From an uncultured Frankiaceae bacterium (lineage in GTDB: Bacteria; Actinomycetota; Actinomycetes; JAFAQI01): DNA of 64,000 nt. The notes beneath the pieces are model-generated. The model did no database searches, had not been told where the DNA came from, and saw only the letters and a program-made list of their open reading frames with translations. Of this stretch, positions 35,838 through 54,711 are shown in pieces. The stretch lies in assembly GCA_964395425.1 (NCBI GenBank), contig CAYNDD010000001.1:63-64062 (forward strand), given 5' to 3'. The position numbers and the translations under genes were made by a program. Within the stretch, counting starts at the first letter, position 1. Each line of letters starts with the position of its first letter.

Positions 35838-36602
35838 TCACGCGACCACACCGCGTAGCACGCTGTGGGAGGAGTGTGTTCCGTGGTCGGCGGGTGTCTG
35901 GATGCTGACGTCGAGCGCGTCGAAGCCCGTCAGCTCACTGACCGGGAGTGGGAAGGTGGCGGTCATGACACGCCCGGTGGTGGCGGGCATTGTTCCGATG
36001 GCGCGGGTTCGTCCGGTACGGGTGTTGAGCAGCCAAACCTCCACAGTGTCGTGTGAGGAGGGAAGGGTCAGACCGGACAGGGTCACCTGCATCTTCTGCC
36101 CGGCGCCAGATCCGACCATGCGAGCGGCTCCTGTCGCCGGGGTTGGAGGTTGGCCGATGGCCGCAAGCCTGACTTCTGCCGTCGGATGTTTCGACGCCTG
36201 GGACAAGTGCCCGATCGCGATCCCACCGGCCAGTGCGGCGACCAGCGCGCCCGCGGCGGCCAATGCGAAGCGACGGTTGACCGGTGGGCGCCTAGGTGCG
36301 GTGGCCGCGGCGGACTGGTACTTCCCTGGCGAGCCGACGTCGGTCGGTTGGATCACTGGTGGACTCGGCATGGGCGCGGAGGCTTTGAGGGCGGCGAGGT
36401 TGAGTGGAGGGACCTCAGAGGGGTCGACCGGCCTGTGCCGTCCGGCGTCCTTGAGCTCGCCGACGGCTGCGGCAGTCTCGGCGAGCTGATCACGGCAGTA
36501 GTTGCAGCCGCGGACATGGTCAACGGTGACAGCACGCTCGGCCGGGAGGAGCTCGCCGCTGAGTAGTCCGACCAGGTCGACGTGATCGCTGCCTCTGGTC
36601 AT
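35838..36602 (-). CDS. Zinc-finger (zf-HC2, HxxxCxxC) anti-sigma factor with a transmembrane/extracytoplasmic C-terminal region.
   Basis: N-terminal VDHVRGCNYCRDQLAE motif. Its ATG overlaps the sigma-gene stop (ATGA). A hydrophobic helix (FALAAAGALVAALAGGIAIG) follows a Pro-rich stretch. Confidence 0.75.
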   Translation of the reverse strand: MTRGSDHVDLVGLLSGELLPAERAVTVDHVRGCNYCRDQLAETAAAVGELKDAGRHRPVDPSEVPPLNLAALKASAPMPSPPVIQPTDVGSPGKYQSAAATAPRRPPVNRRFALAAAGALVAALAGGIAIGHLSQASKHPTAEVRLAAIGQPPTPATGAARMVGSGAGQKMQVTLSGLTLPSSHDTVEVWLLNTRTGRTRAIGTMPATTGRVMTATFPLPVSELTGFDALDVSIQTPADHGTHSSHSVLRGVVA

Positions 36603-37132
36603 CGCGGGACTCCTTCCAGCGCTGCAGCGAGTGCGCGTAACCCTCGCGCGGCTCGTGCCTTGACGGTGCCCAGCGGCGCGCCGACCCATTCGGCGACCTG
36701 CGGCAGGCTCAGGTCGTCGAAGTAGACCAGCACGAGCACTTGGCGTTGTTCTGGGCTGATCATGGCTAGCGCGTCCCGGACCTGCTGAGAGCGGGTGAAT
36801 CGTTCAGCCAGGTCGTCGTCGGCGATGAGCGCGGGGTCCTGCGGCAGGTCCGCGACGGGTTCGGGCCGCCTGGCGCGGAGCTGGTCGGCGGCGCGATGCT
36901 TGGCGATTCCCATCACCCAGCCCGCGAGCGGCCGGTTGGCGTCGTATTGGTCTCGGCAGCGCCAGACGTCGAGGAAGGTGCGCTGCAGGACGTCTTCTGC
37001 GTCGCCCGGTGAGACCACCCGACGGAGGTAGCCGAGCACTATCGGCGCAAGCAGGGCGTACGCCTGCTCGATCGCTTCGTCATCGACCGCCAGCCGTGCG
37101 GCGATGTCGCTGATCGCAGGCCCGGCGTCCAT
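36599..37132 (-). CDS. ECF (sigma-70 family) RNA polymerase sigma factor.
   Basis: Region 2 (LLAPIVLGYLRRVVSPGDAEDVLQRTFLDVWR) and region 4 (LSPEQRQVLVLVYFDDLSLPQVAEWVGAPLGTVKARAARGLRAL). The start is internal to the long ORF in the track, at MDAGPAIS. Confidence 0.8.
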   Translation of the reverse strand: MDAGPAISDIAARLAVDDEAIEQAYALLAPIVLGYLRRVVSPGDAEDVLQRTFLDVWRCRDQYDANRPLAGWVMGIAKHRAADQLRARRPEPVADLPQDPALIADDDLAERFTRSQQVRDALAMISPEQRQVLVLVYFDDLSLPQVAEWVGAPLGTVKARAARGLRALAAALEGVPR

Positions 37133-40544: not shown

Positions 40545-41348
40545 ATGGCTGCCGGTATCTCATCGACATCTAGGTCAGATCTCGCCCGTCTTACCGGTCG
40601 CGGTCAGCGGTTCATCGTGGTCGCGGACGCCGAGCGCGAGCTTGGATTGGATCGTGAGGGTGCTCGCCGGCGGCTTGTTCGGTGGGCGGAGCAAGGCTGG
40701 CTGCGCCGGGTTCGCCGCGATCTGTATATCCCGGTGCCTGTCGACGCAGAGCACCCTGAGTCATGGGGCGCCGATCCGGTGGTGCTCGCCGATGAGGTGT
40801 GGGGACCGTGTTACGTCTCGGGCTGGACAGCGGCGAACCACTGGGGTCTGAGCGAGCAGAGCTTCCGTACCACGGTGATCAGGACCACCAGACGTGTCCG
40901 GCAATCCACCCAACGATTGTTGGACAATGAATTTCTCCTCGCACACGTCGCGCCGGAGAACATGACTTGGGGACTACGTCGTGAGTGGCGAGACGAGAGG
41001 CGGATCCAGTTCGCCGACCCAGCGAGGACCCTCGTCGACATGCTTGACGATCCCGCGCTCGGCGGCGGCGTTCGATTGGTAACCGAGTGCCTTGGTGCCT
41101 ACCTCGAGAGCGAGGATGTCGGGGCCCTGATAAGCGCTGCGGATCGGCTGGGGAATCGTGCGGTATTCAAGCGGCTCGGTTACCTCGCGGAACAGATCGG
41201 CGCTGAGGAGCACATCCTCGACGCGAGTGAGGCTCGGCTGTCGCAAGGCTTCGCGTTGCTCGACCCGACCCAGTCAACCGGAGGCTCTCGCTCACGACGG
41301 TGGCGGATCGTGGCGAATGTTCAGGTCGACGCGACCGAGCCGTCATGA
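40545..41348 (+). CDS. abiEi: AbiEi family antitoxin / transcriptional regulator (type IV TA, abortive infection).
   Basis: N-terminal wHTH: SDLARLTGRGQRFIVVADAERELGLDREGARRRLVRWAEQGWLRRVRRDLY. The C-terminal domain matches AbiEi_4 architecture. Paired with a DUF1814 toxin gene. Confidence 0.7.
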   Translation: MAAGISSTSRSDLARLTGRGQRFIVVADAERELGLDREGARRRLVRWAEQGWLRRVRRDLYIPVPVDAEHPESWGADPVVLADEVWGPCYVSGWTAANHWGLSEQSFRTTVIRTTRRVRQSTQRLLDNEFLLAHVAPENMTWGLRREWRDERRIQFADPARTLVDMLDDPALGGGVRLVTECLGAYLESEDVGALISAADRLGNRAVFKRLGYLAEQIGAEEHILDASEARLSQGFALLDPTQSTGGSRSRRWRIVANVQVDATEPS

Positions 41349-42316
41349 TCCCTGCCCGCGAGGTGCTCGCACTGCGCACCGAGTGGTCGCTTCGTGCCGA
41401 TGTCATCGAGAAGGACTGGGCCCTGGGATGGGTGCTCGCAGGAATCGCGGCGCACCCGCAATTGTCAACGTGGATCTTCAAAGGCGGGACATGCCTGCGC
41501 AAGTGTTTTTACGAGACCTACAGGTTCTCCGAGGACCTTGACTTCACCGTCGTCGGGGATGGACCGGAAGAGCCCGAAGAAATCATCCCGATCTTCCGGG
41601 AGGTGGCCAGTTGGCTCGCCGATGAAGCCGGTCTCGAGATGCAGATCGACGACCGATCGTTCATTCGACGACGCAACCTGCAAGGCGTGTCCACAACGCT
41701 CGGACGGGTGGCCTACCGGGGGCCGTCAAATCCCCTGACGATGACGACCCCACCAAAGCTGAAGATCGACCTGACCTCCGATGAACTGATCGTGAACCGA
41801 CCAGTTCGACGCGGCGTGATGCACCCGTACTCCGACGCACCACAGCCTCTCGCAGCGATCAACTGCTATTCGATCGTCGATCTGTTAGCCGAGAAACTAC
41901 GCGCGTTGGCGCAACGCTGCAGGCCGCGTGATCTGTACGACGTCGTGTTTCTGTTCCGTCACCCCGACCTGCTCGGGCGCGCGCCGGCCGTCGCTAGTTC
42001 GCTTGCACGCAAGTGCACCCACGTTGGCATCGATCCGCCGACACTGGCCAGCATTCATGCAACGCCTTACCGGGCCGAGGTGGAGACAGAGTGGGCCAAC
42101 ATGCTCGATCATCAGCTTCCGAGCCTGCCGGCGTTCGGTCACGTGTGGGCAGCCTTGGAGGAGCTATTCGGTTGGCTCACAGGACAGATCGCGCTGCCAA
42201 GCCTGCCCCGCGCCGAGTCCAGCGGTCTCACCGACTGGCGCGCGCCACGGTCGATGACTTCCTGGCGCACCGGAGCACCTCTTGAGCTGATCCGCTTCGC
42301 TGGCGCCAACCGCTAA
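41345..42316 (+). CDS. abiEii: AbiEii/AbiGii family nucleotidyltransferase toxin (DUF1814).
   Basis: Hallmark motif FKGGTCLRKCFYETYRFSEDLDFTV (KGGTAL...RFSEDiD). ATGA overlap with abiEi. Confidence 0.8.
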   Translation: MIPAREVLALRTEWSLRADVIEKDWALGWVLAGIAAHPQLSTWIFKGGTCLRKCFYETYRFSEDLDFTVVGDGPEEPEEIIPIFREVASWLADEAGLEMQIDDRSFIRRRNLQGVSTTLGRVAYRGPSNPLTMTTPPKLKIDLTSDELIVNRPVRRGVMHPYSDAPQPLAAINCYSIVDLLAEKLRALAQRCRPRDLYDVVFLFRHPDLLGRAPAVASSLARKCTHVGIDPPTLASIHATPYRAEVETEWANMLDHQLPSLPAFGHVWAALEELFGWLTGQIALPSLPRAESSGLTDWRAPRSMTSWRTGAPLELIRFAGANR

Positions 42317-42522
42317 AGGTCGAGATCGACTACCGACCTGAGACCGGCCGAGCCGGTCGCAGGATCGTGGAGCCCTACTCGTTTCGCCGCACGAGAGACG
42401 GCAACATTGTTCTGCTCGTCATCAACCATCACGGACAGCTGCGCTCCTATCGCACGGACCGTATTGCGGCGGTCTCCGTCACTCGGGATGCATACCGACC
42501 ACGACGCCAGGTCGAGTTCTAG
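42286..42522 (+). pseudogene. Start-less WYL-domain-like fragment immediately downstream of abiEii.
   Basis: Frame +2 relative to abiEii reads (TGA)ADPLRWRQPLKVEIDYRPETGRAGRRIVEPYSFRRTRDGNIVLLVINHHGQLRSYRTDRIAAVSVT. This follows the WYL pattern: xIxYxxxxGxxxxRxVEPYxLxxxxGxWYLxAxxxxxxxxRxFRxDRI. There is no ATG/GTG near its 5' end and no HTH N-domain. Confidence 0.45.
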
Positions 42523-42863
42523 AACCCGGCTTGCCGATCTCGGTGGTAGTCGAGCCCTGGCCCCGGACGCCCAACCTGTCGGATACGCGGACGTCTGGTG
42601 AAAATTCGCGCCGCTGGGCAACGCAGTCCACACGCACGCCGTGGGTGCATTCACCGCAGCCATGGCCGACAGGTACCGCGTCGTCGCCGCTGTCCTGCTG
42701 GTCGCTGCGGCCGGGGTCGGGGAGGGACTTCGACACCCCGCTCGATGGCTCGTGCCGTCAGGCAAGACCGCCATTACGACTGAGGGCGGGTGAGCCGAAG
42801 ACCAGTCGTAGCGGCGGCGGCAGTGGAGGCGTGGACAGTATTCGTCGATCACGGAGCTATAAA

Positions 42864-42897
42864 ACCAGGGTCGGCCTAGGGTCGCGCCCTCGGGACA
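42864..42897 (+). promoter_or_regulatory. Copy 1 of a conserved 34-nt element, ACCAGGGTCGGCCTAGGGTCGCGCCCTCGGGACA, containing tandem GGGTCG half-sites 11 bp apart. It lies 31 nt upstream of the membrane-protein gene.
   Basis: Near-identical copy at 47694-47728 (one indel, three mismatches), in the same orientation and at the same distance from an ATG. Confidence 0.5.
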
Positions 42898-42927
42898 TTC
42901 CGATTGGATTGCCATTGGCTGTGACCC

Positions 42928-43680
42928 ATGGACAGCTCGATCGATTTCGCCAGTCTCAGCAACTCACTCACAGCCGATCCTTCCGATGGTGTCGAGCGGA
43001 TCCATGCGGGTGCGAAGACGCGGTCCCGGCTGCTTGCTATCTCCTTGCCGATTGCCTCCGGGTTGTACGTCGCCGCTGTAGCTCTGAACCCGAAGGGCAC
43101 CGATCAGGTCATTACGAGCATGGCCACGGCGGCCACCCTCCTGTCGATTGCGGGGAAGCACACGACTCAGCTCTACATCTCGGGCGCCCTGACGGTCCTC
43201 GCACTCGGCGCCCTGGCGATCGCATATGCCGCTATCGCGACGCTGGCGAGCAGACGCGGCGCCGGCCTCGCCACGGTCGCCGCAGTCATCGGGATAGTCG
43301 CCAACTTCAGCGGTGCTGTCTACAACGTTCTGGTCGGATTCAACCTCGCCGCTGCGGCCTCGGCACCGATATCGCGTGAGGCAGCTGCTCGGTTCCTGGT
43401 CACAACCTTCGACTCTGGATTCGCGACGGCGTTCTCTTATGTCTATTTCGTTGGCATATACCTTGCGCCGATCCTGATGGGAATCGCCTTGTGGCGTGGC
43501 CGAAGCGTGCCCCGTTGGCTCGCGATCTTCTTCATCCTCGCTCTGGAGGTCGCTCAACAAGCACCAGCCAAGGGCGTTGTTGCGGCCGCCTACACGGTGC
43601 CTTTCATGGTCGTGATGGTGATTCTCGCCACCCGGATATGGCGCTCGTCAGCGCAAGAGCGCAGTGAGCTCTCGTCGTGA
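42928..43680 (+). CDS. Integral membrane protein, about 6 TMS (DUF4386-like), function unknown.
   Basis: 250-aa ORF with six long hydrophobic segments. Its 3' end overlaps the 3' end of the convergent LAL regulator gene by about 33 nt. Confidence 0.55.
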   Translation: MDSSIDFASLSNSLTADPSDGVERIHAGAKTRSRLLAISLPIASGLYVAAVALNPKGTDQVITSMATAATLLSIAGKHTTQLYISGALTVLALGALAIAYAAIATLASRRGAGLATVAAVIGIVANFSGAVYNVLVGFNLAAAASAPISREAAARFLVTTFDSGFATAFSYVYFVGIYLAPILMGIALWRGRSVPRWLAIFFILALEVAQQAPAKGVVAAAYTVPFMVVMVILATRIWRSSAQERSELSS

Positions 43681-46347
43681 GGTGATGTCGAGCTTCATGT
43701 AGCTATTGCGGAGGTGGTATTCAACGGTCTTCACGGACAGGTAGAGCCGGCTGGCCACCTCCCGATTGGTCAGGCCGGTAGCGACGAGTCGGGCGACGGC
43801 GAGCTCGGCGCGGCTCAGGCCGAGGATGGTTGCTGGGCTGGCGGTCGCTGCGCTCACTCGTAAGGTGGCAAGCTCCTCCGCACACGCCTGAACGTAGGGA
43901 TCTGCGCCCATCGCTGAGAAGAAGCGATGCGCGCGCTCCAGCTGTGTGATGGCTGCTGCTGGATTACCCGTCTGGTGCAGGTGTCGGCCGTGATGAAGCC
44001 CTAAGAGTGCATGTTCAAAGGGCATCGACACCTGCGCCTCAATCGCATGCGCCGCAACGAAGGCCTGATCCGCTTGAGTGTCGTTGCCGCGGGCTGCGGC
44101 GAGATTGCCGCGGCAGCGTGCGATGGACACCGCTGCCGAGGCCAGACCGTCGTCAGGGATGGCGTTCTCGAACTCCTCAAGCGCTGATTCGGCCTCGTCA
44201 AAGCGACCTAGTCCGATCAGCGCATCGACCTCGGTCGACCTCCAGTTGAAGACGCCGGGTCGGCCCCCGACGCCCAGCAGGTTGGTCGCGCGGATCCGCT
44301 CGGCCGCGACGAGGACCCCTGGCAGGTCGGTTCGCGATGCTGCGAGAGCCACGGCGGCTGTTCCTGATGCGGCCACGGGGAGAACAAGCGGAAGCCGCTC
44401 AGCGGCCGCCCTCGCGGCAGCGACATGCAGCTGTGCAGCGTCCCACTGGCCGCGGCAGGCCAGGACTTGCGCTGCCCGACCATGTGCCCGAGCCAGGTCG
44501 ACTGGCCGATCATTGTCCTGCGCCAACGACGTCGCGAGCTGGGCGTGCGCCACCGCCGCGTCCCAGTCGCCGCGACGGAAGTGGGCGTCGCTCAGTGCCG
44601 CTAAGCACGGCACCGGATAAGTGGACGGCAACCCCGCCTGCAGGCGCGCCGCGGCGACGCCGAGGTCGGCGATCGCCCCGGCGAGGTCATCCGAGTACAC
44701 CTTGACGATGCCGCGCATGATCAGGGCGTCAGTGGAAGTGAGCGGCACCTCGTTGCCAGCGGCGGGAAGGAAGCTCAGTACGGCAAACCCTTCCGGGCTG
44801 CGGCCGTCGGCCGCGAACGCATAGGCCTGCCCGGTACGCGCCATCGCACGCAACGCTGAACCCTCGACCGTGCCGGCCACCGCACGGTCGGCCCAGACGA
44901 GCGCTTCGTCGGGCCGACCGGAGATCACCATCCAGTTCGTCAACGATGTGGCAGCACGCGCCCCGATATCAGGCTCGGCCACCGGATCGTGGCCGCGCCA
45001 GGCGGCCAACAGACGGTCCTCGGCAGTGAGTGAACCCGTGAAGACCTCCAGCAGCCCAACCAGCGCGTCACGACGAGCGCTCGACACCTGGCAAGACTCA
45101 AGGACCCTCGCCGCCGCCAACGTGTCAGCCGCGTTGAGCAGGATCGCCGCCGCGTCGAGCAAGCGACGCTCCCGGTCAGCCGCACCGGGCGACAGGGCAG
45201 CAGCCTGCTCGATCGCCCAGGCAGCCGCAGCCGAGTCACCGGCCGGCGAGGAGGCGGAGGCAGACGCTTCGAGTTCGGCAGCGAGCGCCTCATCAGGTCC
45301 CACTGTCGCCGCAACCAAGTGCGCGAGCCTGACGCGCCCGGCAACGAGGCCAGCAGCTCGGGCATGCAGCTCGCGACGGCGCGTTGCGGACAGATCAGCG
45401 TAGATCGCGGCCCGGTACAACGGGTGAGCAAAACTCGCCTCGGACCGCAGCGGTCCTTCGGTCAACAGGCCAGCCACGACCGCGTCATCCATCTCGGGCT
45501 GTGCATCAGCGAGCTGCGCCACGGTCGCGATCGCCGAGAGCAATCCGTGCTGACCAACCACCGATGCTGCCCCCAGGAAGGCCTGAGTCGCTGACGAGAG
45601 TGCAGCGACGCGGGCCAGGATGACAGCGGACAGTTCACGCGGCGCCGGCAGGTCACCCTCCCCGGCACGGTTGAGACCTGCGACGCCGATCTCGTCGAGC
45701 AACGCCCGGCAATACAGCGCGTTGCCCCCGGCGTGGACCAACAAGCGCGACGCACCCTGAGCCGACAACGATCCCAGCCCGAGCCGGCTGGCCAGCTCGC
45801 TGAGGTCATCCGCGCTGAGCCCGCCCAGCCTGATCTGAGTCACCCGAGGATCCCCAGCGACGAACCGGGCCCAGCCGGGATCGACCACCTCACCAATTCG
45901 CGTCGACACGATGGTCAGGACTCGATCTGCCCGCAGCCGCCGGAGCGCGAACAGCACGGCACGTGACGATGGCCGGTCAGCCCATTGCAGGTCGTCGATG
46001 CTCAGCACTGCCACGCGCTCGTCGGCTTGCAGGTCGTCGAGCCGGGCCAGCAGCTGCGCCCCGACAGCCATCGGGTCGATCCCCGGATCCGTCGCCCCAG
46101 GCGTGAGTTGGTCGATGACCCCGTAGGAGAGCAGCACCTCCTCTTCGTCGCCGCCAGCCTCGAGGACGACCGCATCCGTCAGTGAACCCAGGAAGCGAGC
46201 GAGCAGGCTCGACTTGCCCGATCCCGGGTCGCCCTCGACATAGACGACCTGCGGGTGACCTTCTCGCGCCGCAGCCAGCCTGTCGTCCAGAACGTGGAGT
46301 TCGGGCAGCCGCCCAACGAAGTCGGCTGGGGCACTCACAACACTCAC
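43648..46347 (-). CDS. Large ATP-binding LuxR-family (LAL) regulator: N-terminal AAA/P-loop NTPase, helical TPR-like middle, C-terminal LuxR HTH.
   Basis: Walker A VVYVEGDPGSGKSSLLARFLG and Walker B VLSIDDLQWAD. About 500 aa of Ala/Leu-rich helical repeats. C-terminal LSRAELAVARLVATGLTNREVASRLYLSVKTVEYHLRNSYMKLDITSRREL. Likely GTG start at 46347 (VSVVSAPADFVGR). Confidence 0.8.
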   Translation of the reverse strand: MSVVSAPADFVGRLPELHVLDDRLAAAREGHPQVVYVEGDPGSGKSSLLARFLGSLTDAVVLEAGGDEEEVLLSYGVIDQLTPGATDPGIDPMAVGAQLLARLDDLQADERVAVLSIDDLQWADRPSSRAVLFALRRLRADRVLTIVSTRIGEVVDPGWARFVAGDPRVTQIRLGGLSADDLSELASRLGLGSLSAQGASRLLVHAGGNALYCRALLDEIGVAGLNRAGEGDLPAPRELSAVILARVAALSSATQAFLGAASVVGQHGLLSAIATVAQLADAQPEMDDAVVAGLLTEGPLRSEASFAHPLYRAAIYADLSATRRRELHARAAGLVAGRVRLAHLVAATVGPDEALAAELEASASASSPAGDSAAAAWAIEQAAALSPGAADRERRLLDAAAILLNAADTLAAARVLESCQVSSARRDALVGLLEVFTGSLTAEDRLLAAWRGHDPVAEPDIGARAATSLTNWMVISGRPDEALVWADRAVAGTVEGSALRAMARTGQAYAFAADGRSPEGFAVLSFLPAAGNEVPLTSTDALIMRGIVKVYSDDLAGAIADLGVAAARLQAGLPSTYPVPCLAALSDAHFRRGDWDAAVAHAQLATSLAQDNDRPVDLARAHGRAAQVLACRGQWDAAQLHVAAARAAAERLPLVLPVAASGTAAVALAASRTDLPGVLVAAERIRATNLLGVGGRPGVFNWRSTEVDALIGLGRFDEAESALEEFENAIPDDGLASAAVSIARCRGNLAAARGNDTQADQAFVAAHAIEAQVSMPFEHALLGLHHGRHLHQTGNPAAAITQLERAHRFFSAMGADPYVQACAEELATLRVSAATASPATILGLSRAELAVARLVATGLTNREVASRLYLSVKTVEYHLRNSYMKLDITSRRELTALLR

Positions 46348-46532
46348 CTGCCGACGCTCTCGTGCAGGACTATTCTCGCGCGTACCGCTCGGACCCTGCG
46401 GGAAGCACAAGCGTACTGATCTCAGCCATCGAGGTGCGGCCGCCAGCCGACGCGGTCGCGATCGGTGAGCACCGGCAAGGGACGATCGTGACCGCCAGCC
46501 GAGGCACGCCGGGCGAATCAGTTCGGTGGCGC

Positions 46533-47705
46533 ATGCTCGCGATCGTCAGCTTGGGTGTCGTCGCACTCACGTTGAACTGGTTCGACATCGCCACTGCGTT
46601 CCCGCCCATCGGCGCGGAGTTCAAGGTCGGGCTCGGGTCACTGAGCTTCCTGATCTCGCTGTTCATCGTCGGTTACGGGCTCGCGCACCTACCTGCAGGC
46701 ACGCTCGCCAAGGCCATCGGGATGAAGAAGGTTCTCGTCCTCGGGTTGACGGTGCAGGGAGTCGCCGGGATCATGTCCGGGCTGTCCTACAACTTCACCG
46801 AGCTCGAGCTCTTCCGCATTCTCAGTGGAATCGGCGGTTCCCTTTTCGCCACCGTCGGCTTCTCCGCAGTCGTCGTGTGGTTCCGCGGCAAGGACGTCAC
46901 CCTCGCGCTCGGGATCTTCGGTGGCGCCGCCTTCAGCGTCGGCGCCGCCTTCGCTCTCTATGTATGGGTCTACCTGCAACGCGACACGAGCTGGCACGCA
47001 TCGTTGATCATCGCCGGCGTCATCGAGCTGGTCGTGGTGGTCGCAACGATCGTCGTTTTCCGGGTTCCGGCTGGTGCCGCTCCGCTGGGTGGCGCCCGGT
47101 TCGACCGGGCCGCCATGCGCGCGTCACTCGCAAGCAGGGACCTGTGGATCTACGGCGTCGCGCTGCTCGGGGGCTACGGCGCCTACTTCACCGTCTCTCA
47201 GCTGTTCTCCGCCTACGCCACTACCGACCGGCACTTGGACCCATCGACCGGCGGGCTGTTGTCGGCGCTGATCGTGCTCGCCGGGATCCCGGGCAGCCTG
47301 CTCGGTGGCTACTGGGCTGACCGCAGCCGCCACCTGCGCGTCTTCATCGTCGGACCCCTGATCGCGGTCGCCGCGCTGCTGGCCCTGATCCCCGCCGTGC
47401 CGACCGGTGCGCTCTGGGTCATCGGGATCGGGATCGGCTTCTTCACCATCTTCGGATTCGCCGGCTGGTCGGCGGCACCAGCTCGCGTGGCCAACATCGA
47501 ACCCGACTACATCGCCGCCGCAACCGGCCTGATGCTCACCCTGGCTGCCATCGGTGGCTTCTTCATCCCGATCATCTTCGGGCACATCGTGCCGCACCAC
47601 GGCTTCACCGCCGGCTGGATCTTCCTTGCCATCGTGTCCTTGGCGTTCGCCCTGGTTGGCCTCGCTGGCCGCAACCCGCCCGATCGGTGCAGAACCAAGG
47701 GTTGA
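46533..47705 (+). CDS. MFS transporter (12-TMS).
   Basis: Hydrophobic 12-TMS profile. Divergent from the LAL regulator gene. ATG 46533 is chosen over the long upstream ORF extension. Confidence 0.7.
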   Translation: MLAIVSLGVVALTLNWFDIATAFPPIGAEFKVGLGSLSFLISLFIVGYGLAHLPAGTLAKAIGMKKVLVLGLTVQGVAGIMSGLSYNFTELELFRILSGIGGSLFATVGFSAVVVWFRGKDVTLALGIFGGAAFSVGAAFALYVWVYLQRDTSWHASLIIAGVIELVVVVATIVVFRVPAGAAPLGGARFDRAAMRASLASRDLWIYGVALLGGYGAYFTVSQLFSAYATTDRHLDPSTGGLLSALIVLAGIPGSLLGGYWADRSRHLRVFIVGPLIAVAALLALIPAVPTGALWVIGIGIGFFTIFGFAGWSAAPARVANIEPDYIAAATGLMLTLAAIGGFFIPIIFGHIVPHHGFTAGWIFLAIVSLAFALVGLAGRNPPDRCRTKG

Positions 47706-47728
47706 CCTAGGGTCGCGCCCTGGGGACA
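47694..47728 (+). promoter_or_regulatory. Copy 2 of the 34-nt GGGTCG-direct-repeat element, ACCAAGGGTTGACCTAGGGTCGCGCCCTGGGGACA. It overlaps the last codons of the MFS gene and lies 31 nt upstream of a small ORF / DUF4260-mmpL.
   Basis: See copy 1. Includes a TTGACC hexamer. Confidence 0.5.
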
Positions 47729-47758
47729 ACAGCGGCCCAGTCCCGTTCGATGTGAGTC

Positions 47759-47965
47759 ATGGGCACATCGAACGCAACGAGCCAACCGATCAGGCTCCTG
47801 GTCGACGTCATCCGAACACCCGACGGGCGCCTCGAAGGCCGCATCTGCCCGGGCTCCTCCGACGCGGGACACGACTTTTCCGGCGTCCTCGAGTTGCTCA
47901 AGGTGCTCGAAGACCTCCTCGACGCCGACTCTGCTGCCGGTGCATCCGAAAGCCACGGAAAATGA
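47759..47965 (+). CDS. Candidate small protein (68 aa) positioned like the membrane-protein gene relative to the conserved upstream element.
   Basis: ORF only. Its stop overlaps the DUF4260 start (ATGA). Support comes from the conserved spacing to the 34-nt element. Confidence 0.25.
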   Translation: MGTSNATSQPIRLLVDVIRTPDGRLEGRICPGSSDAGHDFSGVLELLKVLEDLLDADSAAGASESHGK

Positions 47966-48348
47966 CGACCGGGCGACCGTTGTGGTGGCTTCGAGCTGAG
48001 GGTCTCGTCCTTCTTGTCACCGCGTTGGCTCTCTACGGGTCGACCCACCAGCACTGGTGGCTCGTACCCACCGCCATTCTGCTGCCCGACCTGCTGATGG
48101 CCGGCTATCTCGGCGGGACCACCGTCGGAGCGGCGGCCTACAACCTCGCTCACGCCTACCCGCTTCCGGCCGGCCTGGCATTGATCGGGATCGGCCGGCA
48201 CGAGCCGCTCGTATTGGCGCTCGGATTGATCTGGCTTGCCCACATCGGCGTGGACCGCGCCATGGGCTACGGCCTGAAGTACGACGACCACTTCCAGCAC
48301 ACCCACCTCGGCCAGATCGGCCACTCCCAGAACGAGGCGATGTCATGA
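47962..48348 (+). CDS. DUF4260 family small membrane protein.
   Basis: WWLVPTAILLPDLLMAGYLGGTTVGAAAYNLAHAYPLPAGLALIG...IWLAHIGVDRAMGYGLKYDDHFQHTHLG matches the DUF4260 signature (HIGxDRxLGYGLKY...THLG). Confidence 0.7.
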   Translation: MTTGRPLWWLRAEGLVLLVTALALYGSTHQHWWLVPTAILLPDLLMAGYLGGTTVGAAAYNLAHAYPLPAGLALIGIGRHEPLVLALGLIWLAHIGVDRAMGYGLKYDDHFQHTHLGQIGHSQNEAMS

Positions 48349-50585
48349 CCAAGACCGCGAACAACGCATCCGCGACGCCTCGCCCGACGTTTGAGGCGTG
48401 GGGCCACCTGCTGTATCACCGTCGCCGCCTCGTCCTCATCATCGCCGCGCTCGCTGTCGTGTTCGCAGGCGTGTGGGGGACCGGCGTGTTCGCCCACCTT
48501 CAGACTGCCGGCGGCTACACCGCACCGCACAGCCAGAGCCAACGTGAGGAGAGCCTCGCGACGCAGGCCTTCGGGCGCAACGGCGGCGACGTCGCGGTGC
48601 TGTACTCGAGCAAGACCTTGACGACCGCATCGCCAGCATTCAAGTCCGCGGTCACTGCGACGCTCGCCAAGCTGCCGCACGATCGGGTCGAGTCGGTGGC
48701 GACGTACTGGTCGACCGGCTCGTCGCAGTTCGTCAGCGCCAGCGGGCACCAGACGTACGCCGTGATCGAGCTCACCGGCGCCGGCGACACCGGACGCATC
48801 GCGAGCTACAACGCGATCAAGGACTCGCTGTCCGCGCCAGGGCTGACGACCCAGGTCGGCGGAGTGATCCCCACCGAGTCCGCGATCAACACCCAGGTCA
48901 GCTCCAACATCGGCCGGGCCGAAGGCCTGTCGTTGCCGATCCTGCTGATCCTCCTGCTCATCATCTTCGGCAGCCTCGCCGCCGCCAGCCTGCCGCTGGC
49001 GATCGGAATCGTGGGCATCCTCGGATCATTCACCGCTCTCCGGCTGCTCACCGAGGTGACATCCGTCTCGAACTACTCGGTCAACATCACCACCATCCTC
49101 GGGCTCGGGCTCGGAATCGACTACGGGCTGTTCATGGTCACCCGGTACCGCGAAGAGCTGCACCGACAGGCCACCGTCGAAGATGCCGTCGCCCGGACCA
49201 TCGCCACCGCCGGCCGTACCGTCGTCGTGTCCGGGATCACGGTCGCGGTCGCCCTCGGCGCGCTGATGCTGTTCCCGGAGACCTTTCTCCGGTCGATGGG
49301 CTACGGCGGAGTCGCGACCGTTCTCGTCGACATGATCGCCGCGCTGACCATCATGCCGGCGCTGCTCGCCGTGCTCGGACCCAACGTCAACGCGTTGCGG
49401 ATCCGCCGTTCGGTGCAGCGTGCACCGGTCGCTGAGCAGGAGGGCGGCTTCTACCGGCTCGCCACCCGCGTCATGCGCCGGCCGGCCGTCTACGCGGTCG
49501 TGATCGTGGTGGCGCTGCTCGCGCTCGCCGCGCCGCTGTTGCACGTCAGCTGGGGCGGCGTCGACGCCACCGCGCTTCCGGCCGGCTCGGCACCGCGGAC
49601 CGTGACCGAGGCGCTGAACCACGACTTCCCCGGCAACCCGACGGCACCAATCGAAGCCGTCGTGAGCTTCCCGGGACCGATCGCCGGCTCACCCGCCCGA
49701 ACCGCCGAGCTGACAACGTACGTCACCCGGCTCGGGAGCGTTCCCGGCGTCAGCCACGCACAGCAGACAGGCATCCACGGCAACGACGCCCGGATCGACC
49801 TCAGCTATGACGCGAGCCTCAACTCACCGGCAGCTCGCAGCCTCGTCGCCCAGGTCCGTGATGTGTCGCCACCCGCGGGAGCGACGTCGTCCGTCGGTGG
49901 CCAGACCGCCGACCTCGTCGACGAGCTGTCCAGCCTCGGACACACCCTGCCGTGGATGGCGTTGGTGGTCCTGCTGGCGACGTTCGTGATGCTGTTCCTC
50001 GCCTTCGGCTCCGTGGTGCTGCCGGTCAAGGCGATTATCATGAACCTGTTGTCGCTCTCGGCGATGTACGGCGCGATCGTGCTGATCTTCCAGGACGGAC
50101 ATCTGTCCCGCCTGCTGCACTTCACCTCCAACGGCACCATCAGCCCGACCACGCCGATCCTGATGTTCGCGATCATGTTCGGGCTCTCGATGGACTACGA
50201 GGTGTTCCTGCTGTCGCGGATCCGCGAGCGTTATGACGTCACCGGCGACAACACCGCCGCGATCGCCAGCGGTCTGCAGCGGACCGGAGGAGTCATCACC
50301 AGCGCCGCACTACTGCTCCTGATCGTGGTCGGTGCGTTCTCCGCCTCCGGTGTGACCTTCATCAAGCTGCTCGGCGTCGGCATGATCATCGCGCTGATCA
50401 TCGACGCCACCATCGTCCGGATCCTGCTCGTGCCCGCGACCATGCGGCTGCTCGGCGACAAGAACTGGTGGGCACCGAAGCCACTCCGTGGCCTGTACGC
50501 CCGGTACGGCATCCACGAGGAGAGCGAGTCCGCGCTGGCCGACGTGGACCTCACGCCGGCAGTCGCCGAGCCGCTGCCGGTCTAG
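48345..50585 (+). CDS. MMPL family (RND-superfamily) membrane transporter.
   Basis: 746 aa. Two 6-TMS bundles with intervening extracytoplasmic domains. MMPL-like GxxxDYxxF regions (GLGIDYGLFMV, GLSMDYEVFLL). ATGA overlap with the DUF4260 gene. Confidence 0.8.
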   Translation: MTKTANNASATPRPTFEAWGHLLYHRRRLVLIIAALAVVFAGVWGTGVFAHLQTAGGYTAPHSQSQREESLATQAFGRNGGDVAVLYSSKTLTTASPAFKSAVTATLAKLPHDRVESVATYWSTGSSQFVSASGHQTYAVIELTGAGDTGRIASYNAIKDSLSAPGLTTQVGGVIPTESAINTQVSSNIGRAEGLSLPILLILLLIIFGSLAAASLPLAIGIVGILGSFTALRLLTEVTSVSNYSVNITTILGLGLGIDYGLFMVTRYREELHRQATVEDAVARTIATAGRTVVVSGITVAVALGALMLFPETFLRSMGYGGVATVLVDMIAALTIMPALLAVLGPNVNALRIRRSVQRAPVAEQEGGFYRLATRVMRRPAVYAVVIVVALLALAAPLLHVSWGGVDATALPAGSAPRTVTEALNHDFPGNPTAPIEAVVSFPGPIAGSPARTAELTTYVTRLGSVPGVSHAQQTGIHGNDARIDLSYDASLNSPAARSLVAQVRDVSPPAGATSSVGGQTADLVDELSSLGHTLPWMALVVLLATFVMLFLAFGSVVLPVKAIIMNLLSLSAMYGAIVLIFQDGHLSRLLHFTSNGTISPTTPILMFAIMFGLSMDYEVFLLSRIRERYDVTGDNTAAIASGLQRTGGVITSAALLLLIVVGAFSASGVTFIKLLGVGMIIALIIDATIVRILLVPATMRLLGDKNWWAPKPLRGLYARYGIHEESESALADVDLTPAVAEPLPV

Positions 50586-54639: not shown

Positions 54640-54711
54640 TGCCCCCGGCAGGATTCGAACCTGCGCCACCGCCTCCGGAGGGCGGTGCTCTATCCCCTGA
54701 GCTACGGGGGC
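54640..54711 (-). tRNA. tRNA-Arg (anticodon CCG).
   Basis: Reverse complement reads GCCCCCGTAGCTCAGGGGATAGAGCACCGCCCTCCGGAGGCGGTGGCGCAGGTTCGAATCCTGCCGGGGGCA. Cloverleaf has a 7-bp acceptor, D-arm, anticodon loop CTCCGGA (CCG), and GGTTCGAATCC T-arm. No encoded CCA. Confidence 0.85.

Follow-up and report, generated by a model that had tools for sequence, protein, structure and literature searches.

The stretch of DNA analysed here, 64,000 nucleotides of contig CAYNDD010000001.1 from an uncultured Frankiaceae bacterium (GenBank assembly GCA_964395425.1; hereafter the window), carries two copies of a short conserved element on either side of a gene for a large regulator of the LAL class. Copy 1 (ACCAGGGTCGGCCTAGGGTCGCGCCCTCGGGACA) lies at 42864-42897 and copy 2 (ACCAAGGGTTGACCTAGGGTCGCGCCCTGGGGACA) at 47694-47728, both on the + strand, and we verified these positions and the shared orientation, which had been given in an earlier note on this DNA. 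Copy 1 precedes a gene for a DUF4386-like membrane protein of 250 aa (42928-43680, +; Pfam DUF4386 E 2e-4, below the family cut-off). This gene is followed by the 899-aa LAL regulator (43648-46347, -; Pfam AAA_16, TPR and a GerE helix-turn-helix (HTH)) and by a Major Facilitator Superfamily (MFS) transporter (46362-47705, +; Pfam MFS_1), which has no element copy in front of it by profile search. Copy 2 precedes a small open reading frame (ORF) of 68 aa (47759-47965, +), the first gene of an operon that continues with DUF4260 (47962-48348, +) and MmpL (48345-50585, +), the latter two assigned by Pfam and by the gene calls on identical contigs; the three genes are linked through 4-nt overlaps. 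Pfam agrees with the gene identities proposed earlier (weak DUF4386, AAA_16+TPR+GerE, MFS_1, DUF4260 and MMPL). The earlier note left two readings of the pair side by side, namely binding sites for the LAL regulator or terminal direct repeats of an inserted module. We propose that each copy is the upstream half of a ~90-bp promoter cassette of the activator type.

The two copies and their parts

By alignment, the copies differ by one indel and three substitutions, as had been claimed. The reported distance to a start codon holds as well, in that 30 nt separate the end of each element from an ATG that begins at the 31st nucleotide (42928 and 47759, respectively). Two further descriptions needed amendment. 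Tandem GGGTCG half-sites are present in copy 1, which has two, whereas copy 2 has GGGTTG and GGGTCG, and the repeat unit common to relatives is (C)YAGGGTC. The spacing of one helical turn between repeats is 11 bp in the clade of the window but 12 bp in most relatives. The extent of 34 nt had to be given up, since the similarity runs on downstream and the 34 nt make up the upstream part of a module of ~90 bp. The alignment of the two copies is block-wise: the boxes and GGGACA are alike, the next 17 nt are dissimilar, and a second block is alike again (TTGGCT-GTGAccc-ATGGACA in copy 1, TTCGAT-GTGAgtc-ATGGGCA in copy 2), with no similarity between the copies upstream of the A-tract. The layout in the window is therefore GGGACA, N17, TTNNNT, N7, ATG.

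Taking the A of the ATG as +1, copy 1 starts with an A-tract, AAAAC (42861-42865, +; about -67 to -63), of which a similar form occurs in nearly all copies and which may be an UP-like tract or a piece of box 1. Box 1, AGGGTC (42867-42872, +; -61 to -56), is a direct repeat of box 2, CTAGGGTC (42876-42883, +; -52 to -45). The third box, CTCGGGACA (42889-42897, +), doubles as the -35-like element, with GGGACA at -36 to -31, and the -10-like hexamer TTGGCT follows at 42915-42920 (+; -13 to -8). In copy 2, the A-rich tract AGAAC (47691-47695, +) aligns with the AAAAC of other copies and is followed by box 1, AGGGTT (47698-47703, +; -61 to -56), box 2, again CTAGGGTC (47707-47714, +; -52 to -45), box 3 with the -35-like element, CTGGGGACA (47720-47728, +), and the hexamer TTCGAT (47746-47751, +), which has a G in front (cGTT). 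The stop codon of the MFS gene (47703-47705) falls within copy 2 and overlaps box 1. The boxes, at about -61/-56, -52/-45 and -39/-32, are repeated, and they lie upstream of and overlapping the -35 position; boxes 1 and 2 are centred near -58 and -48, and the third, related box, CT(S)GGGAC, coincides with GGGACA. The core hexamers are imperfect, GGGACA agreeing with TTGACA at 4/6 positions and the -10-like hexamer being TTNNNT. A 'terminator-like' match on the minus strand (42879-42865) is simply box 1 followed by the A-tract in reverse.

Within the 64-kb window, a 23-nt core (allowing up to 3 mismatches) matches exactly these two sites, and a 31-nt gapped pattern likewise matches just these two. 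Neither had a match in 100 shuffles of the window. With a core profile the two copies score 41-42 bits, and the next site in the window scores less than 4 bits.

Conservation and gene context in related loci

Related loci (designated by L numbers) were gathered as syntenic relatives, with a validated DNA pattern and through their proteins. Both copies are kept in place in L007 and L009, which are syntenic with the window at 89% and 77% protein identity, respectively, and the proteins of the window were also found on metagenome contigs from peat and bog. Scanning GTDB species-representative genomes with the pattern returned 20 loci, with one copy per genome and two in one genome, all from uncultured Actinomycetota metagenome-assembled genomes (MAGs) of bog, palsa, SPRUCE peat or Danish soils; the same pattern matched at least 118 contigs in metagenomes. 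Among the matches listed there are 116 distinct copies, from ~140 MAG and metagenome contigs, and 112 of these have the regular layout. All copies belong to a single uncultured actinobacterial lineage of peat and bog soils. The proteins led to six further loci (L010, L152, L154, L156, L157 and L158), and the element was found in all six. Thus it is present in 9/9 distinct protein-anchored loci, that is, in these six, the window, L007 and L009.

How these copies were collected determines how their conservation can be read. The pattern fixes AGGGT, CYAGGGTC, C-C-CT and GGGACA, and invariance at those positions is meaningful solely in the nine protein-anchored loci; spacer length, hexamer, distance to the start, ATGGAC, A-tract and gene context were not imposed by it. 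In the protein-anchored loci, box 2 (CTAGGGTC) is retained in 12/12 copies, one of which has CCAGGGTC, GGGACA is invariant, and the 17-nt spacer and the TTNNNT hexamer are retained. Box 1 is the most variable box there, occurring as AGGGTC, AGGGTT, AGGGCT and GGGGTT. The consensus reads AAAAC-N2-AGGGTC-N4-CTAGGGTC-RCRCCCTS-GGGACA-N17-gTTNNCT-N7-ATGGAC. Written as repeats, it consists of three direct units, C(A/T)(A/G)GGG(T/A)C, in steps of 12 and 13 bp (11 and 13 in the window), and the third unit coincides with the -35-like hexamer. An inverted repeat, AGGGT-N3-ACCCT, overlaps the boxes in many copies.

The features that the pattern left free are nearly constant. A TTNNNT hexamer is present in 112/116 copies. 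Among the 112 regular ones, the spacer between GGGACA and the hexamer is 17 nt in 110, and the hexamer stands 7 nt (99 copies) or 6 nt (11 copies) before the start, with 111 copies falling at 6-8 nt. The hexamer is TTGACT in 48 copies, TTAACT in 30, TTAGCT in 20, TTCGAT in 7 and TTGGCT in 3, and it is directly preceded by a G in 109. The ORF opens with ATGGAC in 97/112, and a tetramer resembling a Shine-Dalgarno (SD) sequence lies within 20 nt upstream in 4/112. An nhmmer profile gives true copies 35-50 bits and everything else in the window and the loci less than 6 bits, with no intermediates. We are highly confident that the element is part of a conserved promoter/operator cassette. As to the spacer, it is variable in sequence, though frequently NNNCCGCGYYGCCCGCG (for example in L026, L028 and L030), a recurrence that may have come down by common descent or be kept by a constraint, for example on GC content or on a small inverted repeat within the spacer. 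In four loci (L075 (247-330), L040, L133 and L042) the start is mutated (ATAGAC, ATAAGC, ATCGAC) or there is no downstream ORF, which suggests decaying small ORFs or cassettes.

The surroundings of the element are also conserved. With the window proteins as tblastn queries, the common gene order is MFS(-), LAL(+), element, small ORF, (DUF4260), MmpL, which is probably the ancestral one, with the MFS gene ancestrally divergent from the LAL gene; frequent followers are hydrolase, saccharopine-dehydrogenase-like, NAD-binding, racemase and DUF4386-like genes. Among the matches listed, the order LAL(+)-element-small ORF occurs in 78/118 metagenome loci, and in nearly all of these 78 the small ORF begins 31 nt past GGGACA. 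A LAL(-) gene lies upstream in 10 more of the 118 listed, either divergent at 121-168 nt or with the MFS gene in between, the latter being the arrangement of the window and L156. Of the 82 non-redundant loci whose upstream flank spans 1.2 kb or more, 70 have a LAL orthologue within 2.3 kb upstream, and the orthologue is directly upstream (65-73% identity) in every sufficiently flanked genome locus except L022. The adjacency of LAL and element thus persists across at least three gene orders, and the cluster has no second regulator conserved across the loci.

Judged by this order, copy 2 is ancestral and copy 1 additional. The DUF4386-like gene of L010 and L021 is located within the MmpL operon and has no element of its own, whereas its counterparts in the clade of the window and in L077 are each preceded by a cassette. 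In the lineage of the window, a second cassette, first codons included, would have been placed before the DUF4386-like gene, which is an operon member in other lineages. Extra copies elsewhere serve other genes. Thus, in L024 the copy between LAL and the operon precedes a 586-aa ABC exporter whose MDNNP start is at the cassette ATG, and in L140 a copy precedes an alpha/beta hydrolase starting with MDTSPTP, which are the first seven residues of the small ORF. Upstream of a distant DUF4386 homologue in L012/L013, which lies beside a two-component system and in L012 is followed by a kinase and response-regulator pair like that of L118, a profile search detected no element.

Predicted start site and candidate regulator

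Both window ATGs have an in-frame TGA two codons upstream (42922-42924 and 47753-47755) and no SD sequence, and because of this TGA the ORFs cannot extend upstream; in most relatives the in-frame TGA is supplied by TTGACT itself. The ATGGAC start of the DUF4386-like gene belongs to the cassette, and four unrelated proteins begin at a cassette ATG, namely the small ORF, the DUF4386-like protein, the ABC exporter of L024 and the hydrolase of L140. The start is an in-frame GTG in L157. In L010 (3571-3612), copy 2 of L024 and L156 (3990-4003), the true ORF begins 11-29 nt later while ATGGAC or GTGGAC is retained and opens a short out-of-frame upstream ORF of 4-13 codons; GAGG lies ~6 nt before the later ATG in L010 and in copy 2 of L024. 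By their sequence, these loci look like cases of a fixed transcription start that has acquired a new short leader, that is, a transition from leaderless to leadered. The first ~8 codons are conserved even at synonymous and third positions, and therefore the initial transcribed sequence belongs to the conserved module. The distance from -10 to start, the spacer, the missing SD and the barred upstream extension are all as expected of a leaderless promoter, and leaderless mRNAs are common in actinobacteria (PMC3898074). We consider it probable that the start is leaderless, with the predicted transcription start at the ATG. RNA polymerase would then initiate at, or within one nucleotide of, the A of the ATG and produce a leaderless mRNA.

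The spacing of the core is ideally suited to a promoter of the sigma-70 type, the spacer measuring 17 bp and the discriminator 7 nt. A canonical TANNNT -10 is absent in register, as no copy has A at the second position of the hexamer, and a simple sigma-70 scan for that reason calls neither window copy.

The candidate for binding the boxes is the adjoining LAL. Its AAA_16 match (E 4e-14) covers residues 31-165, with the Walker A sequence GDPGSGKS seen in the translation, and its GerE match (E 1.7e-13) covers residues 865-917 of the 920-aa ORF; the TPR_2 and TPR_12 matches fall below their cut-offs, and matches in the PDB are restricted to LuxR-type HTH domains. An N-terminal P-loop NTPase, a TPR-like middle region, a C-terminal LuxR/GerE HTH and a length of ~900 aa place it in the LAL class. 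It is not a MalT equivalog, as NCBIfam PRK04841 gives 25.5 bits against a cut-off of 537, and over the C-terminal 190 residues only. A DosR-like recognition of GGGAC was considered and dropped, the residues of the recognition helix being different.

The LAL is the favoured candidate because it is the sole consistently present regulator and because its adjacency has outlasted several rearrangements; from these comparisons, we put its binding to the boxes at an even chance or slightly better. Under the proposed mechanism, the boxes would be transcription-factor binding sites and the likeliest candidate to occupy them would be this STAND ATPase with TPR and LuxR HTH regions. As with MalT, an oligomer of the LAL on asymmetric, repeated boxes reaching the -35 position would offset the weak core elements, and the primary target would be the small-ORF/(DUF4260)/MmpL operon. 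The model as a whole, an activator-type promoter cassette with a leaderless start and the LAL as candidate binder, is the one that we favour on balance, with reasonable rather than high confidence.

Several observations weigh against this model. At its second position, the -10-like hexamer does not have the A of TANNNT, and TANNNT accompanies 73% of M. tuberculosis start sites (PMC3898074). Box 2 contains TAGGGT, a perfect TANNNT, which by its sequence could serve as the -10 of a transcript with a ~40-nt leader; that assignment, however, leaves the constraint on spacer length and the missing SD without explanation. The manner of collection, based on a pattern, partly accounts for the apparent invariance of the core positions. 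We infer activation rather than repression, and the two are indistinguishable by sequence. The earlier suggestion of regulatory sites stands in so far as the copies are complete conserved promoter cassettes, linked to a LAL orthologue in most relatives; by its adjacency, the LAL is their putative binder. In 12/82 loci, the element is intact while the adjacent LAL is missing or truncated. Moreover, the LAL-MFS intergenic region shows no sign of autoregulation, with no element copy by profile and no enrichment of boxes in 36 such regions.

The loci without a complete LAL are of several kinds. In the strain represented by L022, L072 and L100, the LAL is deleted and a 1180-aa SARP+NB-ARC+TPR+LuxR hybrid lies beside the MFS gene, on its downstream side (L100 4153-7692, -); the same hybrid lies beside an intact LAL in L016, L091, L123 and L127, and it occurs in few lineages and not in the window. 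In L068 and L144 only ~40 C-terminal LAL codons are left. In the related loci L113 and L118 (L118 324-2290, +), a HisKA_3 kinase and a NarL/LuxR-type response regulator are directly upstream, in the place of the LAL. In L062, L085, L090 and L124, unrelated DNA lies upstream of the intact element.

These exceptions bear on the question of whether the boxes are the operator of some other protein, be it a repressor, a global regulator, a response regulator of the NarL type or a direct-repeat-binding protein of the SARP type. Direct repeats with a periodicity of 11-13 bp that reach the -35 position are classic for SARP and OmpR-type proteins, and the boxes have just this arrangement; loci that have lost the LAL retain an intact element, a two-component system stands directly upstream in L113/L118, and the hybrid regulator is in the cluster of a few lineages. 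However, none of these alternatives is kept throughout the lineage: the SARP hybrid is limited to few lineages and absent from the window, the two-component system is confined to two related loci, and the LAL is the one regulator that is present in about 85-90% of loci, in all gene orders. We regard a different binder as distinctly unlikely. PimR is a SARP-LAL hybrid (PMC3367932). A further possibility is that sigma, not the LAL, is the main determinant, the core being a promoter of the extracytoplasmic function (ECF) sigma-H/sigma-E type and the boxes being accessory or otherwise bound. The G before the hexamer (109/112) yields cGTT(G/A)(A/G)C, which is like the -10 cGTT or t/cGTTgaa, and GGGAC is one base off the -35 GGAAC; the published forms are GGAAC-N17-18-cGTT for sigma-H/sigma-E (PMC10012870) and GGAAYR-N17-18-GTT in M. 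tuberculosis (PMC4803200). An ECF promoter would account for the hexamer without the A of TANNNT, it would likewise place the start at or next to the ATG, and an envelope-stress sigma driving an MmpL exporter is plausible. Yet the -35 lacks the core AA dinucleotide (GGGACA in all copies as opposed to the GGAA core of GGAAYR), the arrangement GGGACA-N16-GTT (GTT in 109/112) is 1 nt short of the published N17-18, and the invariant CTAGGGTC, box 1 and the A-tract are left without explanation. The window holds no GGGAC-N-CGTT site besides copy 2. We consider the ECF reading possible but unlikely; whether the promoter is of the sigma-70 type or ECF, the predicted start falls on the ATG.

Two readings that dispense with a promoter fare worse still. 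As a cis-acting RNA (riboswitch, attenuator or leader), the element would belong to a transcript begun further upstream, such as read-through from LAL or MFS, and indeed it often lies 16-140 nt behind a co-oriented gene. AGGGT-N3-ACCCT could form a short hairpin, and single-sequence folds are slightly more stable than those of shuffles (z -1.1 to -1.9), with copies 1 and 2 giving disagreeing folds. However, no relevant Rfam family was matched at the gathering threshold or even at E<=10, RNAalifold on 23 diverse copies returned -4.85 kcal/mol with a covariation term of -0.11 and 0 compensatory pairs, natural variants break the sole plausible hairpin (copy 1 of L009, L015, L019), and a sequence-free spacer of fixed length, 17 nt, is the signature of a promoter and not of an RNA; an RNA element is thus highly improbable. 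As terminal direct repeats, whether target duplications or recombination scars, the copies would bound an inserted 4.8-kb module or belong to a dispersed repeat family, and they do flank three genes in the same orientation, with an integrase/AbiE island remnant just upstream of copy 1. Against this, the element stands at the position of copy 2, before the small ORF, in more than 100 single-copy loci, and copy 1 has its own full promoter geometry and start codon. The 4.8-kb segment is not an insert because LAL and MFS are ancestral neighbours of the element, and among the relatives compared none has the segment present or absent at the repeats and there is no empty site. Extra copies in other loci stand before single genes from different families. 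The earlier note had named occurrence at many unrelated loci, or within a longer dispersed repeat, as what would speak against a regulatory element; we found 1-2 strict copies per genome, all in this cluster, with all-or-none profile scores and no similarity upstream of the A-tract. Terminal repeats are accordingly the least credible of the explanations, and we give them almost no weight.

Known systems, cassette reuse and neighbouring genes

The promoter cassette can be compared with several known systems. In MalT-dependent promoters, the boxes are direct repeats that reach the -35 position of promoters with weak core elements, and the candidate sites of the cassette are similar in being short, asymmetric direct repeats that reach -35 next to a weak core. 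The LAL of the window shares with MalT and other LAL proteins the P-loop STAND ATPase, the TPR-like sensor region and the C-terminal LuxR HTH. The differences are that the box CYAGGGTC is unrelated to the GGA[TG]GA of MalT, that the cassette transcript is apparently leaderless, and that the target is an operon for an MmpL exporter, neither a sugar-catabolic system nor an antibiotic cluster. The boxes that MalT binds are short and asymmetric, in contrast to the sites of palindrome-binding LuxR proteins (PMC9628970). The promoters of SARP proteins (AfsR, ActII-ORF4 and PimR, with heptamers at 11-bp periodicity) are likewise similar in their direct repeats about one turn apart, the proximal one overlapping the -35; however, the adjoining LAL carries a LuxR HTH but lacks a SARP (OmpR-type) domain, and the periodicity of the cassette is 11-12 bp and then 13 bp. 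With actinobacterial leaderless promoters, the cassette shares a start 6-8 nt past a -10-like hexamer, the lack of an SD and an in-frame stop directly upstream. It differs from them in that its hexamer is TTNNNT in place of TANNNT and in that a -35-like element and upstream boxes are conserved, a -35 motif being absent from most mycobacterial promoters (PMC3898074). Sigma-H/sigma-E promoters resemble it in cGTT at -10, GGGAC at -35 and a predicted start at the ATG, and they differ in that the cassette has one mismatch in the critical GGAA core and a spacing 1 nt shorter.

Very few regulators of the LAL type (MalT-like STAND proteins) have known DNA targets, and most of those targets are degenerate. 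The cassette is an unusually well-defined candidate operator, with three boxes, a fixed geometry and more than 100 natural variants, and the start site that goes with it, probably a leaderless one, can be predicted precisely. It also outlines a small regulon of an abundant uncultured peat and bog lineage, comprising MmpL together with an orphan small protein and DUF4260, DUF4386-like and hydrolase/dehydrogenase genes. In the literature, we found no earlier description of a LAL-controlled MmpL operon or of the motif. The sequence of the boxes, the TTNNNT hexamer and the regulon are new, whereas the mechanism resembles known activator-dependent and leaderless promoters. The practical weight is limited, since the organisms are uncultured and activator boxes in a promoter are a textbook principle.

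What stands out most is that the whole cassette, including the start codon, is reused for different genes; genes can enter or leave the operon through duplication of the promoter plus start codon. As a speculative extension, an operator, core promoter and start codon might form one portable unit of ~90 bp ending in ATGGAC, sometimes with several further codons, which is copied before unrelated genes. Each copying event may then create an in-frame N-terminal fusion and a leaderless mRNA at once, and the gene would join the LAL regulon. In addition, the invariance of gTTNNCT and the nucleotide-level conservation of ~25 bases at the beginning of the transcript might reflect an unusual mode of initiation, for example an uncharacterised sigma specificity; alternatively, the LuxR domain of the LAL could replace sigma region 4 at GGGAC.

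The small ORF that opens the operon is a real coding sequence, since among 105 distinct sequences the entropy by codon position is 0.585/0.45/0.918, the third position being the most variable. The protein alignment starts at Met-Asp, and PDGRLEG and FSGVLELLKVLE are invariant in it. Searches of Pfam and NCBIfam gave no match, and the family is an orphan of 117 clusters, all from MAGs or metagenomes. Its AlphaFold model (pLDDT 78) has three strands and one helix, and nothing significant was found among PDB folds (best E 0.29).

Directly upstream of copy 1 lies the remnant of a mobile island (40545-42316), with an integrase fragment, an AbiEi antitoxin and an AbiEii toxin. L007 (3906-7156) has a full integrase of 398 aa and a longer AbiEii with a weak WYL match, and the AbiEii of the window may be truncated by comparison. 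A 200-aa ORF (42313-42915, -), annotated by public gene callers, overlaps copy 1 and has no family match; at the equivalent place in L007 no gene is called, and the ORF is probably a spurious one of high GC content. About 6 kb upstream of copy 1, an ECF sigma gene is followed by a membrane anti-sigma gene (35838-37132, -) with a zinc-binding HxxxCxxC motif (HVRGCNYC). This pair (35.8-37.1 kb) was considered as cognate to the cassette and rejected, there being no similar motif upstream of it and its place being outside the conserved cluster. At the other end, a tRNA gene (54640-54711, -; Rfam 70.8 bits) lies just downstream of the racemase gene that closes the conserved cluster.

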